From: a virus
Strand: one strand, 5' to 3'
Virus record (IMG/VR): IMGVR_UViG_3300027276_000037
Location: 1 to 6,445 of that record
DNA length: 6,445 nt
Positions 387 through 6,445 of the stretch are shown here, piece by piece. The notes under the pieces are model-generated. The model saw only the letters and a program-made list of their open reading frames with translations. It did not search any database and was not told where the DNA came from. Both the position numbers and the translations under genes were made by a program. Position 1 is the first letter of the stretch, and the number at the start of each line of letters is the position of its first letter.

Positions 387-554
387 GTGTCTGCTTTACT
401 TACTGAATTGGGTTTAGTTGTAACTCAGGTTTTTACTTGGGTTGGTACTGTTGCTACTACAATTACTAGTACTCCGCTTTTATTGCTGACTACTGGTTTT
501 CTAGTGCTTGGTGGTGCCGTTGGTATTTTTGGCCGTCTATTGTCTAGAGGATAA
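387..554 (+). CDS. Major-coat-like protein, paralog 1, 55 aa (MSALLTELGLVVTQVFTWVGTVATTITSTPLLLLTTGFLVLGGAVGIFGRLLSRG)
   Basis: GTG at 387 follows a strong SD, AAAGGAGG (372..379), and TAA lies at 552..554. About 80 percent of residues are identical to the 575..763 product. The layout is Pf1-like: an amphipathic N-terminal half, a hydrophobic helix, and two Arg at the C-terminus. Confidence 0.7.
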   Translation: MSALLTELGLVVTQVFTWVGTVATTITSTPLLLLTTGFLVLGGAVGIFGRLLSRG

Positions 555-574
555 AAGGAAGGAGGTATTAAGGA

Positions 575-763
575 ATGGAAGGTGCTGCTATTACTATGTC
601 TACTCTTTTAGGTGATCTTTCAACTGTTGTTACTTCTGTATTCGGTTGGGTTGTTACTGTTGCTGAAACTATTACTGAGACCCCTTTGCTCTTGCTTTGC
701 ACTGGTTTTCTAGTGCTCGGCGGGGCTGTCGGTATCTTTGGCCGTCTGCTTTCCCGCGGCTAA
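575..763 (+). CDS. Major-coat-like protein, paralog 2, 62 aa
   Basis: This ORF is in the track. GGAGG (561..565) lies 9 nt upstream of ATG 575. It is a small protein with an acidic N-terminal part, a hydrophobic helix and the tail GRLLSRG. It sits just before a strong stem-loop, as major coat genes do in Ff-type phages. Confidence 0.8.
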   Translation: MEGAAITMSTLLGDLSTVVTSVFGWVVTVAETITETPLLLLCTGFLVLGGAVGIFGRLLSRG

Positions 764-766
764 GAT

Positions 767-807
767 GGAAGGGGGGCGCTTCAGCTTTAGCAAGCGCCCC
801 CCTTTCC
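767..807 (+). terminator. GC-rich stem-loop after the coat genes, a putative intrinsic terminator or attenuator
   Basis: GGAAGGGGGGCGCT (767..780) pairs with AGCGCCCCCCTTTCC (793..807). That gives 12 contiguous bp plus 2 more after a 1-nt bulge, with a 12-nt loop. There is no long U-tract, so termination is probably partial. Confidence 0.55.
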
Positions 808-825
808 CATGTATGAGGTGTTTTT

Positions 826-975
826 ATGAGTGATTTTTTAATAGCTCTTTTAGATTTATGTTTGTTCCCTTTTCAAAATACTTCTAATTTAATTATCTTT
901 ATCCCAACTGCTTGTGTGACAATCTTTTTCCTTTTTGCTGTTATTTCTCGTTTGGTACGAGGTGATTATAGATGA
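826..975 (+). CDS. Small membrane protein, 49 aa (MSDFLIALLDLCLFPFQNTSNLIIFIPTACVTIFFLFAVISRLVRGDYR)
   Basis: ATG at 826 follows GAGGTG (815..820). The TGA stop at 973..975 overlaps the ATG at 972 of the ATPase gene (ATGA), which suggests translational coupling. There is one long TM segment. Confidence 0.55.
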   Translation: MSDFLIALLDLCLFPFQNTSNLIIFIPTACVTIFFLFAVISRLVRGDYR

Positions 976-1697
976 AGGCTTTTTTCCTTTTTTTAACTTC
1001 TGTTCTTGCTTTCATGACTATTTATCATTTTTTAACTCGTAAATATCTTAACCCTTATAAACTTATTATGATTTTTGGTAAAAAGGGAAGTGGTAAGTCT
1101 ACTTTGCTTATTAAATTAGCCCTTGAATATATGAAAAAAGGTATTCCTGTTTTTTCTACCGAAAAAATTCCCGGTTGTTTCTTGATATCTCCGTCCGATA
1201 TCGGATATACCGAATTTCCTTCTAATTCCGTTATTCTGATAGATGAGGTAGGTATGATTTGGGATAATCGTGGTTTTAAGAATTTCGATACAAAAGTACG
1301 GGATTGGTTTAAGCTCCAAAGACATCGTAAAATCCGTGTTTATTTATTTTCTCAAACTTTTGATATAGATAAAAAAATTCGTGATTTAACTGATGAAATG
1401 TATCTTGTGGAAAAAAAGTTTAGGGTGTTTAGCTATGCAAAACGTATTATCAAACGCACTGTACTTAATAAATCGTCTGCGGAGGCTCCTTCTAAGATCG
1501 ATGAAGATTTGGTCTTCGATTCTTTACTTTTGTTTTGGTGTGGGAGTAGGCGTTTTACTTTCATCCCCAAATATGCAGGCTTATTTGATAGCTTTATTGC
1601 AAAGAAGCTAAAAGAAAGGGAGTTTGAACAAGTCCCGTTGAGTTGCCCAATAAAAGAACGCCGTAAATGGTTTAAGAGAAAAAATGTCAATCAATAA
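972..1697 (+). CDS. Zot/pI-like P-loop morphogenesis (assembly) ATPase with an N-terminal TM anchor, 241 aa
   Basis: Walker A is GKKGSGKST (1077..1103) and Walker B is VILIDE (1230..1247). These are followed by LQRHRKIRVYLFSQTFDIDKKIRDL, which matches the RH..(D/x)..Q..id..ir signature I associate with the Zot/gpI family. The N-terminal hydrophobic helix is MKAFFLFLTSVLAFMTIYHFL. Confidence 0.85.
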   Translation: MKAFFLFLTSVLAFMTIYHFLTRKYLNPYKLIMIFGKKGSGKSTLLIKLALEYMKKGIPVFSTEKIPGCFLISPSDIGYTEFPSNSVILIDEVGMIWDNRGFKNFDTKVRDWFKLQRHRKIRVYLFSQTFDIDKKIRDLTDEMYLVEKKFRVFSYAKRIIKRTVLNKSSAEAPSKIDEDLVFDSLLLFWCGSRRFTFIPKYAGLFDSFIAKKLKEREFEQVPLSCPIKERRKWFKRKNVNQ

Positions 1698-2482: not shown

Positions 2483-2701
2483 TTATCTCGGCCAATCAAG
2501 CCCTTTAGGTAGCCCGAGGATATAGTCTGCACTGACATGATAAAATAGGCATAAGGTTTTAAGATGCTCTATTGGTAAGGGGTGTTTTCCTTTTTCATAC
2601 CTATAATAGTATTGTTTAGTTGTGTTTAGTATTTTTGCGATTTCTTCTTGTGTTAAATCTTTGTCAATTCTTAATTCTTTTAATCTTTCATTGTAATTCA
2701 T
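2483..2701 (-). CDS. XRE/Cro-CI family helix-turn-helix transcriptional regulator, 72 aa from the preferred start
   Basis: The HTH signature is LTQEEIAKILNTTKQYYYRYEKGK, followed by ADYILGL, which is typical of HTH_3/XRE proteins. The ATG at 2701 has GGTGA 8 nt upstream. The track ORF extends to 2755, but that ATG has no SD. Confidence 0.85.
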   Translation of the reverse strand: MNYNERLKELRIDKDLTQEEIAKILNTTKQYYYRYEKGKHPLPIEHLKTLCLFYHVSADYILGLPKGLDWPR

Positions 2702-2765
2702 AGCTAAATTCACCATCTTTATTTTGTTGGTTTTGCTTATTTTATCAAAAACCATATTTTATTAC

Positions 2766-2811: not shown

Positions 2812-2820
2812 ATATGATTA
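2805..2820. promoter_or_regulatory. Operator O2, TAGTCATATATGATTA (one mismatch to O1)
   Basis: This is the second copy of the same dyad, 32 bp centre-to-centre from O1. It lies downstream of the rightward -10, near the expected transcription start. Confidence 0.55.
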
Positions 2821-2849
2821 TTACAAGTAAAAAAGGAGGAAGAAAAGGA

Positions 2850-3083
2850 ATGGAAGTAGTAGGATACAGAGCAATTAATTTTAGAGGTTCAGATGGGAAT
2901 ATGGTTGATGGTGTGACAATCTATTGTACTTATCCCTTGGATAAGGGTGAAGGAATCGGTACAGAACGGTTTTTCTTTTCCCGGCAAAAACTTGATAAAA
3001 GTGATTATCGCCCTAGTGTTGGTGATGATATTGATGTTACGTTTAATCGGTATGGTAAGCCCGATATGATCATCTGCAAATAG
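2850..3083 (+). CDS. Small beta-rich protein, 77 aa, first gene of the rightward operon; candidate ssDNA-binding (gpV-like) protein
   Basis: ATG at 2850 follows GGAGG (2835..2839). The track start at 2814 lies inside operator O2 and has no SD. The size, the predicted beta-rich sequence and the position next to rep resemble inovirus gene V, but I recognise no sequence motif. Confidence 0.65.
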   Translation: MEVVGYRAINFRGSDGNMVDGVTIYCTYPLDKGEGIGTERFFFSRQKLDKSDYRPSVGDDIDVTFNRYGKPDMIICK

Positions 3084-3158: not shown

Positions 3159-4055
3159 ATGGTAATAGGGGAGTGGCGTGTTTTGGGATTCGATAGCGCT
3201 AAGAATGCGTTTTATTCTTCCTTGGGCGTCGCTCCCCTTGTTAGTTCTGTTTGTGGCTTAAATCTTTGTAGTGCAGATTTCAAGTCAAATGCCCGTGTAA
3301 AGGTCTATCGCGATTGCCGGTTGTTGCAAGTCTGTAATGATAATATCTTTGTAGATGGCAAAATTGAGGCTATAGACCGTAAAAGCGTCCGCAGATATGA
3401 GGTTCCCCCTAGGGGGCAAGCTGCTGACCCTGAACGTAGTTTAGAGGAATCTCAGCGTCGTGCTGTGTCAGCCGTCCGGGATATTACCCGGTGTAACCGT
3501 TTTGAGTATATGTTTACATGGACGCTGAACGATAAGTTAATTAATCGCTATAATCCGGATGAAGTGTATAAGAGGGTATCGTATTTCTTGCGTAATGCCA
3601 GCCGGCGTAAAGGATTCCGTTATGTGGTTATTCCAGAGTACCATAAATTAAGGCATGGGGAAGATTCCCCCGGTATACATTTCCATGGCCTTTGTAATTT
3701 GGGTAGCGTTCAAATCAAACGAGCGTTGTATAAAGATGGTTCCTTTCGTGTAGATAAGTCTGGTCGTTCTGTTTTCAATATGGTGGATTGGAAATTTGGA
3801 TGGTCAACATGTGTACCAATCGATGAAAATTATAATCGTGCTTGTAGTTACATAGTCAAATACATTACAAAATCTAAAAATAAGATTTTTGGTAAATGGT
3901 ATTTGTCTAGTCGAGATTTGCAAAAACGCCCTGATATTCTGTTTATTGAGCCTGTTGATTTTTATCAATTTAGAGATACTCAAAAAATTGCATCTGGTTT
4001 TCAGTATGAAACGAGGGTATTTAAAGATATAACGATTGTTAGCGAGGAGTTTTAG
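3159..4055 (+). CDS. Rolling-circle replication initiator (HUH endonuclease, two-tyrosine YxxKY type, phiX174 gpA/pC194-like superfamily)
   Basis: Motif 1 is FTWTL (3513..3527), motif 2 is IHFHGL (3675..3692) and motif 3 is YIVKYITK (from 3849). An alternative start is TTG at 3183, which has GGGGAG 9 nt upstream. ATG 3159 has only a weak SD. Confidence 0.9.
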   Translation: MVIGEWRVLGFDSAKNAFYSSLGVAPLVSSVCGLNLCSADFKSNARVKVYRDCRLLQVCNDNIFVDGKIEAIDRKSVRRYEVPPRGQAADPERSLEESQRRAVSAVRDITRCNRFEYMFTWTLNDKLINRYNPDEVYKRVSYFLRNASRRKGFRYVVIPEYHKLRHGEDSPGIHFHGLCNLGSVQIKRALYKDGSFRVDKSGRSVFNMVDWKFGWSTCVPIDENYNRACSYIVKYITKSKNKIFGKWYLSSRDLQKRPDILFIEPVDFYQFRDTQKIASGFQYETRVFKDITIVSEEF

Positions 4056-4192: not shown

Positions 4193-4217
4193 AGGATAGG
4201 GTAGGGGAGTGGTTGCT

Positions 4218-5621
4218 GTGAAAAAGTATATTATATGTGTTTTTATTTTTATTAGTCTTTTCACTGTGTCCGCTTCTGCTGCCGTTGTATATTCTGGCGT
4301 TGGTCAAGACTATTTTTCTGGTTTAGATATTGGTCAATTTAATGGAAAAGTAATTGTTTGGGGAAGAACTACTTCTAGTGGTACATTATCTGGTTCTTCT
4401 AATTCTTTTTCTTTAGATAGTGGTAACGGTGATATTTTATTTAGTGTTTCAGGTAAACCATATGTTGACTATGTAGATATGTCTTTTGTAAATTCAAATT
4501 ACTTTTTTGAATCTGGTCGTACTTATGTATTGTACTTTGAAATTCCTATAGATTCTGGCCAAACAAATAGAATTTTTCCTGCTTTGTTTAACCGTTCGAC
4601 GAATCGATCATTATCGTTAAAGGGTTATGATTTATTAGATAAATTGATTACTATTCAGGATTACAGTAGTTCTGTTTCATCTGTTTATAATTACAGTAAT
4701 CGTACTATGCGATTTAATTTAAGTTTTACTCCAACTGTTGATATAGCTGGTGATATATTTTTAAGATTAAGCTTTTCTTCTCCTGTGGGATTAGATTCGT
4801 TAGGCTGGTCTTATGATTCGCATCAATATATTTTAAAAAATCCTGTTATTCGCCGTTCATCCGGGTCAAATTCAGTAGATGTATATATTAATCAGGCTGC
4901 GTCTGAGATTGTAAATGCAGTGAATGATTTAAATCTTAATTTTTCTGCAATGGGTAATGCTTTACAGGACATTCTTTCATATATGACTGGTGATCAAGAA
5001 GCTATTTTAAATTCCACATATGATGAGCTTTATGCAATTCATTATTTGCTTAGTAATAATATGATTCCGGCAATTGTAAATGGTTTTGCTTCTCTGGAAG
5101 GCGCTGTGAAGCTTGGTTTTGCTGATACGGCTCTTGAGATTCAGGCTCAGACTTCTCAGCTTATTTTAACCTTAACGAATTGTTTTGAATCGTTAGAAAT
5201 TAAAATAGGGCAAGAATCTGATGATATTCAGTCTGCTATTCAAGCGCAGACTAATGCTATTTTAGCCTATTTGGAAAATGCTTTTTCACAGTCTAATTCT
5301 GGTGCTATGTTGGATTCTATAGGTGATTTGGAAAATACATATGCTCCTGCTGGTGCGGTAGAAGATGAGGTAATGAGCAGCATTGATAATTATTTACCTG
5401 ATATTGGCTATGATACTTTTTCAGTACCTGTAGGCGTCTTATCTGCTATGACTTGGACAGTAGGTAAATTTAATGTCATATGGGATGAGCTAGGGGCAGA
5501 TCTACAGTTTTTAATAATGCTTCCTTTGATGATCGGTTTAGTTCTCTTGCTGATTGGCCGTGGTTCGATGTCCTATATTATGTCTGGTTTAATGCGTCAT
5601 CGGAGAAAAGGTGATTCATAG
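4218..5621 (+). CDS. Secreted, C-terminally membrane-anchored large virion protein (pIII-like adsorption or minor coat candidate), 467 aa
   Basis: GTG at 4218 lies 8 nt after GGGGAG (4204..4209), although the track uses GTG at 4209. The signal peptide is MKKYIICVFIFISLFTVSASA. The N-terminal part is rich in Ser/Asn/Tyr, the middle is helical, and the C-terminal TM LIMLPLMIGLVLLLIG is followed by the basic tail RHRRKG. Confidence 0.85.
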   Translation: MKKYIICVFIFISLFTVSASAAVVYSGVGQDYFSGLDIGQFNGKVIVWGRTTSSGTLSGSSNSFSLDSGNGDILFSVSGKPYVDYVDMSFVNSNYFFESGRTYVLYFEIPIDSGQTNRIFPALFNRSTNRSLSLKGYDLLDKLITIQDYSSSVSSVYNYSNRTMRFNLSFTPTVDIAGDIFLRLSFSSPVGLDSLGWSYDSHQYILKNPVIRRSSGSNSVDVYINQAASEIVNAVNDLNLNFSAMGNALQDILSYMTGDQEAILNSTYDELYAIHYLLSNNMIPAIVNGFASLEGAVKLGFADTALEIQAQTSQLILTLTNCFESLEIKIGQESDDIQSAIQAQTNAILAYLENAFSQSNSGAMLDSIGDLENTYAPAGAVEDEVMSSIDNYLPDIGYDTFSVPVGVLSAMTWTVGKFNVIWDELGADLQFLIMLPLMIGLVLLLIGRGSMSYIMSGLMRHRRKGDS

Positions 5622-6009: not shown

Positions 6010-6445
6010 ATGATGAAGAAGGTGATTTGTTTTGGTTTGGTTTTTGTCTGTCTGGCTACAGTGGGTTATGCTTATGGCAGCACACCCCCTTCTAATCCCC
6101 GTGTTTCTGGCGCTTGTTTTATCGATTGTCGTACTGTTGAGCTTGGCCGTGTTACGTTATATTTCCCCGTTACATACCAATACGACTGTTTAACCTATTC
6201 TTCTAGCGGTAATCTGTTCAACCTTACCAATTCTACTATCACAGGGTTCTATTATGATTCTTCTTCTGTGGGGGATAGCCAATTAGCCGTCCGGTTTACT
6301 TCTTTTAATGAGCCGGAATATAGGTATGCTTACGAAAATGGCAATTATATCTCTTATACCTATGATAACCTTACCATTACCGAGATTCTTAATACCAATA
6401 TAGATATTGTAGAATCTTACGATGATCTTACTATTGTTCCCCGTC
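6010..6445 (+). CDS. Secreted protein with an N-terminal signal peptide, 3' truncated at the window edge (second virion or adsorption-type protein candidate)
   Basis: ATGATG at 6010 follows AAGGAAG (5997..6003). I translated by hand to the window end and found no stop. The signal-like N-terminus is MMKKVICFGLVFVCLATVGYAYG, followed by a Tyr/Ser/Asn/Thr-rich sequence. Confidence 0.75.
   Translation, partial: MMKKVICFGLVFVCLATVGYAYGSTPPSNPRVSGACFIDCRTVELGRVTLYFPVTYQYDCLTYSSSGNLFNLTNSTITGFYYDSSSVGDSQLAVRFTSFNEPEYRYAYENGNYISYTYDNLTITEILNTNIDIVESYDDLTIVPR

Follow-up and report, generated by a model that had tools for sequence, protein, structure and literature searches.

The stretch of DNA analysed here (6,445 nt, hereafter the window) is a complete circular inovirus-like genome. 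Circularity was indicated by a 123-nt self-overlap of JGI contig L115 and by an ORF that begins at 6010, crosses the junction of the circle and runs on to position 72, with a product of 169 aa. The small circle carries a Zot/pI-like morphogenesis ATPase and a rolling-circle Rep, as is typical of Inoviridae genomes, and its Zot protein shared 72% identity with the one annotated in bajarodino virus 45. The closest GenBank records were Inoviridae from animal faeces (bajarodino virus 45, the Dulem viruses, and porcine Inovirus sp.), and prophage relatives were found in Clostridia, namely in an Anaerotruncus rubiinfantis assembly and in Lachnospiraceae and Clostridia MAGs. The window is a small filamentous phage of gut Clostridia. 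Its features are collected in Table 1, and at their centre stands a tandem pair of paralogous coat-like genes, here called P1 and P2. Besides these two, the ORF list of the window contained five ORFs of 49-72 aa with hydrophobic segments. Homologues of the two that precede P1 adjoin the coat-like gene or genes on the upstream side in single-copy loci and in the relatives L001, L114, and L126, and both ORFs are candidate minor tip proteins.

Table 1. Features of the 6,445-nt window, with the two coat-like genes divided into their parts.
Feature	Position	Strand	Remarks
Small hydrophobic ORF, 51 aa	50-205	+	ORF list
Small hydrophobic ORF, 53 aa	210-371	+	ORF list
Shine-Dalgarno AGGAGG of P1	374-379	+	7 nt before GTG
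P1, coat-like, 55 aa	387-554	+	GTG start, no leader; family HMM E=2.7e-32
P1 amphipathic N-half	387-473	+	codons 1-29
P1 C-half	474-551	+	codons 30-55; hydrophobic segment and basic tail GRLLSRG
Shine-Dalgarno AGGAGG of P2	560-565	+	9 nt before ATG 575
P2, coat-like paralogue, 62 aa	575-763	+	ATG start; family HMM E=1.4e-36
P2 extension, 7 aa	575-595	+	MEGAAIT, predicted disordered
P2 N-half	596-682	+	
P2 C-half	683-760	+	one residue (T/C) off the P1 C-half
GC-rich hairpin right after P2	765-810	+	15-bp stem; loop with GCTTTAGC
Hydrophobic ORF, 49 aa	826-975	+	directly downstream of the coat-like pair, followed by the Zot gene
Zot/pI-like morphogenesis ATPase	972-1697	+	Pfam Zot 7e-06; PHROG 197 Zot-like 1.8e-14
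XRE repressor	2483-2755	-	
G2P-type rolling-circle Rep	3159-4055		Pfam REP_ORF2-G2P 6e-09
470-aa protein	4209-5621		hydrophobic segment at N-terminus

Several observations concern the remainder of the genome and its integrated relatives. ENA contig L114 (ERZ27245803) matched the window at 100% identity for 6581 nt and diverged past window position 1997, where a module encoding a 350-aa tyrosine integrase takes over. Either one phage occurs in two forms, of which only one has the integrase, or the break lies at a site of attachment or recombination in the neighbourhood of 1997. A tyrosine integrase was also present in both L126 (GCA_023431215.1, contig JAEYXR010000052.1), a prophage with two copies of the coat-like gene, and L127 (GCA_052835165.1), a prophage with one; DUF6873 and MacB/FtsX genes adjoin both prophages, which suggests a common integration neighbourhood. 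The relative in Anaerotruncus rubiinfantis (L110/L111; GCA_040913545.1, contig JBDFUN010000022.1) is about 5.9 kb long, carries a single coat-like gene, and is integrated as two tandem head-to-tail copies, an arrangement that has been described for some other filamentous prophages. Within the window, positions 2755-2820 hold the near-perfect palindromes TAATCATATATGATTA and TAGTCATATATGATTA inside a 32-nt direct repeat; they lie between the divergent XRE repressor gene and a gene at 2814-3083, overlap the best promoter-like site (2766-2794), and are likely operators. A perfect 16-bp inverted repeat at 2046-2078, with runs of A and T at its flanks and convergent blocks of plus-strand and minus-strand genes on its two sides, looks like a bidirectional terminator.

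A preliminary description of the locus had aligned P1 and P2 without gaps, residue 1 of P1 against residue 8 of P2, and had counted 44 identical residues among 55; we reproduced this alignment. The last 20 residues, TGFLVLGGAVGIFGRLLSRG, were the same in both products, and 11 of the 20 codons differed, pair for pair as first described, the remaining 9 being the same in the two genes. Nucleotide identity between P1 and P2 was 109/165 overall and 25/55 at third positions. Thirteen base differences fell in the last 20 codons and every one was synonymous, where synonymous sites make up 18.7 of 60; the probability of this all-synonymous pattern under neutrality was about 3e-7, and it was therefore not due to chance. 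Selection on the pair was estimated by the Nei-Gojobori method. The dN/dS ratio was 0.27 for the whole gene (dS 1.07), 0.65 for the N-half (codons 1-29; dS 0.72), and 0.07 for the C-half (codons 30-55), in which dS was saturated at about 1.7. The low overall ratio and the very low ratio of the C-half at saturated dS agreed with the earlier proposal of an old duplication with purifying selection on both copies.

That the pair is neither an assembly artefact nor a recent repeat was also upheld, by independent assemblies, synonymous saturation, and orthology of the N-halves. An assembly artefact was ruled out, as the pair was 100% identical in ENA contig L114 and JGI contig L115. A recent duplication was ruled out by the saturated synonymous sites together with orthologues of the P1-like and P2-like N-halves in other genomes; N-half identity to the copy at the same position in L001 was 0.81, versus 0.64 between the two copies within the genome. 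In the short contigs L116 and L117, which came from other samples, a partial ORF is followed by P2.

The acidic residues of the two proteins numbered 1 in P1 and 4 in P2, as had been reported, and the arginines 2 in each. Base composition differed between the C-halves, with a GC3 of 0.58 in P2 (683-760) versus 0.27 in P1 (474-551) at a genome GC of 0.36, and no donor for the GC-rich C-half of P2 was found among the collected loci. The extension of P2 belongs to a recurrent form. A short, often acidic stretch, MEGxxxxM, precedes the conserved Met that opens the 55-aa core in the window (575-598) and in L031, L032, L056, L098, and L124, and is present in single-copy genomes too. ATG stood at the core-start position in 52 of 53 downstream copies; translation may start at two sites, or the extension may be removed.

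We examined the signals around the two genes. No hairpin was found in the 20-nt spacer between P1 and P2, and the hairpin right after P2 had a folding energy of -34.9 kcal/mol (z -4.0). A strong hairpin also directly followed the last copy in 50 distinct relatives (mean -30.8, background -12.2); in 38 of them, none of 30 random windows drawn from that locus was more stable, and T-runs followed many of these hairpins. Since no clear T-run follows the hairpin of the window, its role as a terminator is uncertain. The hairpin is probably a transcript-end or attenuator element. Given that each gene has a strong ribosome-binding site of its own, that the spacer lacks a hairpin, and that a strong hairpin follows P2, P1 and P2 are probably co-transcribed. 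Gene VIII of the Ff phages has a similar arrangement, with strong expression signals and then a hairpin. As a separate observation, the loop motif (G/A)CTTTAG(C/T) was common to about a dozen lineages despite variable stems, including the window (765-810), L005, L009, L045, L049, L054, L065, L074, L087, and L104. A sequence-specific role of the loop as packaging signal, origin, or nick site, besides termination, is possible.

The number of copies was surveyed in 126 related loci and the window. Loci were collected with Zot, the coat-like protein, and exact protein look-up as seeds; a narrower alignment was used for the locus search, the wide one being too diverse, and all ORFs of the collected loci were scanned with the family HMM. 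Two full tandem copies were present in 70 loci, corresponding to 58 distinct pairs, and in 10 further contigs the second copy was cut by the contig end, which brings the loci with a tandem pair to about 80 overall. A clean single copy away from contig ends was found in at least 20 loci. Among 9 complete GenBank genomes, in which copies were counted from the scan because tblastn of P1 was too insensitive (2 records), three had two copies, five had one, and one had none detectable. The pair was also seen in one prophage of a bacterial assembly, and the Anaerotruncus rubiinfantis prophage had a single copy. The pair is thus widespread, yet single-copy relatives are frequent and clean. It follows that the second copy is dispensable and that a one-subunit coat is workable in this phage family, and any claim that the pair is obligatory is weakened. 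The preliminary description had considered that one copy might be decaying in related genomes; a tblastn search of 41 single-copy loci found no decayed copy with a frameshift or stop.

Recombination between copies left several traces. When the single gene of L082 and L108 was compared with the two-copy loci L099 and L094, the HSPs from both copies overlapped by 140 nt, which indicates that a repeat unit is gained or lost by recombination between copies, with the caveat that L082 and L108 may reflect assembler collapse. Contigs L042, L053, L060, L062, L077, L083, L086, L088, and L091 end inside the second copy, and in L070 the break is a circular wrap. Assembly evidently fails at the repeated 3' half; copy number is therefore underestimated, and some contigs with one copy may be collapsed. 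In the close relatives L033 and L036 the order of the genes is reversed relative to window positions 387-763, with the P2-like copy upstream and the P1-like copy downstream, which fits unequal recombination in a tandem array.

We further compared the two halves of the genes within and between genomes. Within each pair, the 25-28 residues from a conserved Pro to the end were identical or had at most 4 differences. Summed over genomes, amino-acid differences between own copies affected 42 of 1480 codons in the C-half and 633 of 1581 in the N-half (29 residues). The C-half occurred in more than a dozen sequence types across genomes, and its amino-acid identity was 0.97 within genomes versus 0.78 between them. 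The identical C-termini had been ascribed to strong purifying selection. Such selection is part of the explanation but does not suffice alone, in that the C-half co-varies within genomes and differs between genomes (58 pairs). In 12 of 65 genomes, the two C-halves were closer to each other in nucleotides than either was to any other genome. Synonymous C-half differences formed a continuous range, from 1 to 18 of about 25 codons per pair. Nucleotide identity of the C-half was 0.99 in L094 (with an exact run of 65 nt), 0.97 in L103, and 0.96 in L065, and that of the N-half in these same genomes was 0.47-0.78. Throughout the 65 genomes, N-half nucleotide identity never exceeded 0.78, whereas that of the C-half reached 0.99.

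For 97 of 106 copies, some genome with another C-half had a more similar N-half than the copy's own paralogue did, so the two halves of the gene have different histories. In the larger super-clade, the N-halves formed two types that split 31 pairs (Ward clustering, k=3; sub-clusters of 35 and 36 copies). Two global N-half types were considered and rejected. At the deepest split the paralogues co-clustered by super-clade, and the types separated only within a super-clade, so that one ancient duplication or a few are both compatible with the data.

The window holds the most synonymously diverged of the pairs. Its C-halves had a nucleotide identity of 0.72 and 10 codons in common versus 9.0 expected from genome codon usage, and its synonymous sites were saturated. 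Homogenisation at the nucleotide level, synonymous sites included, was absent in the window pair and present in L094, L103, and L065. Active recoding against recombination was rejected as a cause of the codon differences, as the 10 identical codons of the window are not below the 9.0 expected at saturation. For all pairs together, 920 identical codons were observed versus 547 expected, which represents residual homology. These sequence comparisons indicate concerted evolution of the 3' half, probably by gene conversion, combined with purifying selection; the pattern is the one that recurrent conversion confined to this half, with later synonymous drift under strong purifying selection, should leave.

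The positions of the differences between the N-halves were also examined. AlphaFold2, run with a 57-sequence alignment, predicted P2 as a single helix over residues 8-60 with a mean pLDDT of 87.9 and the 7-residue extension as disordered. Over 53 pairs, N-half positions 1, 4, 5, 8, 11, 12, 16, 18, 19, 22, 23, 25, 26, and 30 were highly identical between paralogues, and positions 2, 3, 6, 7, 10, 17, 21, 24, and 28 were of low identity. In the same pairs, Fourier analysis of the paralogue differences gave a power of 5.9 at 100° per residue and at most 1.7 at other angles. According to this periodicity, one face of the N-helix is kept, and residues on the opposite side either vary freely or are driven apart. 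The 11 replacements of the window fell inside an arc of 160° (mean resultant length 0.72, P about 1e-4 to 5e-4). The divergence in charge noted earlier for the N-terminal halves was true in the window but was lineage-specific and not a family trait. The downstream copy was more acidic than the upstream copy in 18 of the 53 pairs, equal in 21, and less acidic in 14, and a systematic charge asymmetry between copies was therefore rejected. What the family does share is divergence on one face of the helix. Divergence of the exposed face may reflect neutral drift where constraint is absent and not selection for heterogeneity, and this counts against the reading of two coat species. We found nothing pointing to a switching mechanism for antigenic variation, which had been offered as one explanation of the pair.

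The assignment of P1 and P2 as coat proteins was based on anatomy and context. Both are short (55-62 aa) and form one long helix with an amphipathic N-part, a hydrophobic segment from about residue 30, and a basic tail; the tail GRLLSRG carries two Arg, and R50 was near-invariant among 24 diverse family members. A strong ribosome-binding site and a hairpin directly after the gene provide a context of high expression. P1 and P2 had no match among the curated coat families of Pfam or PHROGs, and in NCBIfam they gave matches far below the cut-off only. A profile search of the PDB with P1/P2 returned one chance-level match (E=1.6), hhalign of the P1/P2 family with the Pf3 coat gave a probability of 2.5%, and Foldseek with the predicted coat-like structure returned 0 hits. 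As all homology tests were negative, P1 and P2 were classed as coat-like by anatomy, outside any named coat family. Their homologues in the GenBank Inoviridae records are labelled 'hypothetical protein'. From architecture and context we infer that P1 and P2 are major coat proteins; they fit the inovirus major-coat class, and most resemble the leaderless coats of the Pf3 type.

The reading we favour, though by no means firmly, makes P1 and P2 a pair of major-coat subunits, expressed together and suited to a single lattice; their identity as coat proteins and their joint assembly are both deduced from the features above. Both proteins would enter the host membrane leaderless, with the N-terminus out and the basic C-terminus in. 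The Zot/pI-like ATPase would then polymerise P1 and P2 around the ssDNA into the same filament. The 26-residue C-half would serve as transmembrane or inner-layer helix with two Arg facing the DNA, and because the C-half and the buried face of the N-helix are interchangeable, either subunit should be able to take a given place in the lattice. The subunits differ on the solvent-exposed side of the N-helix and in the short tail of P2, which would give a mixed particle surface. The duplication is old, and the 3' halves are probably kept alike by repeated gene conversion and purifying selection, the last homogenisation in the window genome being long enough ago for synonymous sites to have saturated. 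Two coat species in the virion, as the preliminary description had proposed, are plausible on this evidence and fit the predicted anatomy. The benefit of the pair may be either coat dosage or surface heterogeneity. A broader version holds that a widespread clade of gut Clostridia inoviruses builds heteropolymeric filaments from subunits with identical inner halves, the surfaces being selected to be distinct and the cores held identical by recombination and purifying selection; we put this forward tentatively, as somewhat less probable than its contrary.

Alternatively, the two genes may encode equivalent coats of which the second only raises supply, with neutral differences on the helical face and a mixed virion as a by-product. 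Such a dosage duplicate would be in keeping with exposed positions that vary between orthologues too, with a charge difference that is inconsistent across the family, and with single-copy relatives that are viable and frequent, and the gain and loss of copies by recombination is visible in the overlapping HSPs described above. We nevertheless regard it as unlikely. The N-halves were never homogenised in the 65 genomes in which C-halves reached near-identity, and the two kinds of N-half recur as orthologues in clades whose C-halves differ. The distinctness of the N-halves weighs weakly here, however, as divergence alone can block conversion, without selection.

Slightly less probable is a division of labour, in which one protein is the bulk coat and the other is specialised, whether to cover one filament end like CPm of the closteroviruses, as an assembly primer or adaptor beside the tip proteins, or as an exclusion factor that stays in the membrane. 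Two N-half types that are kept distinct, the extra flexible N-terminal tail on P2, the neighbouring putative tip-protein genes, and the different start codons (GTG in P1, ATG in P2) would suit specialised roles. The equally strong Shine-Dalgarno sites, however, suggest comparable high expression, and the buried face and C-half are interchangeable, as mixing throughout the lattice would require. Moreover, the gene order is flipped in L033 and L036, and some lineages have cleanly lost the second copy. Least probable, at long odds, is that P1 and P2 are pVII/pIX-like tip proteins or an assembly cofactor and that the real coat is encoded at 50-205, 210-371, or 826-975, since, for all the missing homology to curated coat families or solved coat structures and the five other ORFs of similar size with hydrophobic segments, P1 and P2 are the best coat fit among the small ORFs (amphipathic N-helix, hydrophobic core, two-Arg tail, and one helix of about 53 residues), own the strongest Shine-Dalgarno sites, and are followed directly by a conserved hairpin, as is gene VIII of Ff.

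Co-assembly of P1 and P2 into one filament would bear on how inovirus capsids are viewed. These capsids are treated as homopolymers in structural models, in phage-display design, and in the annotation rules for metagenomic inoviruses. A two-subunit coat, if true, would mean that the lattice tolerates, and possibly exploits, mixed surfaces in nature. Dual-display designs for phages of Gram-positive hosts could take it as a ready-made model, and it would provide a compact case of concerted evolution limited to one domain in an ssDNA virus. On the practical side, GenBank lists the coat-like genes as 'hypothetical', and the repeat often interrupts contigs, so that copy number is under-called. To our knowledge, described inoviruses carry one major coat gene, whereas the phage family of P1 and P2 usually carries two. 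A search of one literature collection returned no natural inovirus described as having two major coat genes, no paper on 'bajarodino', and no proteomic or structural data on the coat of this phage family. The sections of a large inovirus survey that give coat families do not mention paired copies (PMC6813254).

Among known systems, the nearest in form is the g8p/pVIII class of inovirus coats, above all leaderless ones such as that of Pf3 (PDB 1IFP). Coats of this class share with P1 and P2 a length of about 45-60 aa, a single long alpha-helix, an amphipathic and partly acidic N-part, a hydrophobic core, and two basic C-terminal residues; the gene likewise lies beside the Zot/pI ATPase and has a strong ribosome-binding site and a hairpin after it. 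P1 resembles the Pf3 coat also in having no signal peptide, but P1 and P2 have no detectable sequence homology to it.

Filaments built from two coat proteins are known from more distant viruses. The archaeal Adnaviria (Lipothrixviridae and Tristromaviridae) have heterodimeric major capsid proteins (PMC12282232, PMC6105669). As proposed for P1 and P2, their filament is made from two paralogous, or at least two, major capsid proteins with genes side by side. They differ in belonging to an unrelated realm with A-form dsDNA and another fold, and their paralogues have diverged over the whole length, with no identical half. Closteroviruses have a tandem duplication of the coat gene, CP and CPm, with both products in the particle, and CPm coats only a short terminal segment. 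These are plant RNA viruses, and the CP/CPm pair shows no concerted evolution of one gene half.

The engineered type 88 vectors of Ff carry a wild-type and a recombinant gene VIII in one genome and yield hybrid virions (PMC4523942). Such hybrids show that the inovirus lattice can accept two subunits with a shared core and a different surface (PMC4523942). The type 88 arrangement is artificial, with the recombinant subunit making up the smaller part of the virion coat, whereas the P1/P2 pair is natural, ancient, and conserved. In type 88 vectors, the second gene VIII carries altered codons that keep recombination low. The only likeness of the window pair to such recoding lies in the neutral saturation of its synonymous sites. 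If the two-subunit reading of P1 and P2 is true, the window phage and its relatives would be the natural counterpart of the type 88 display phage and the first case of a two-subunit inovirus capsid.
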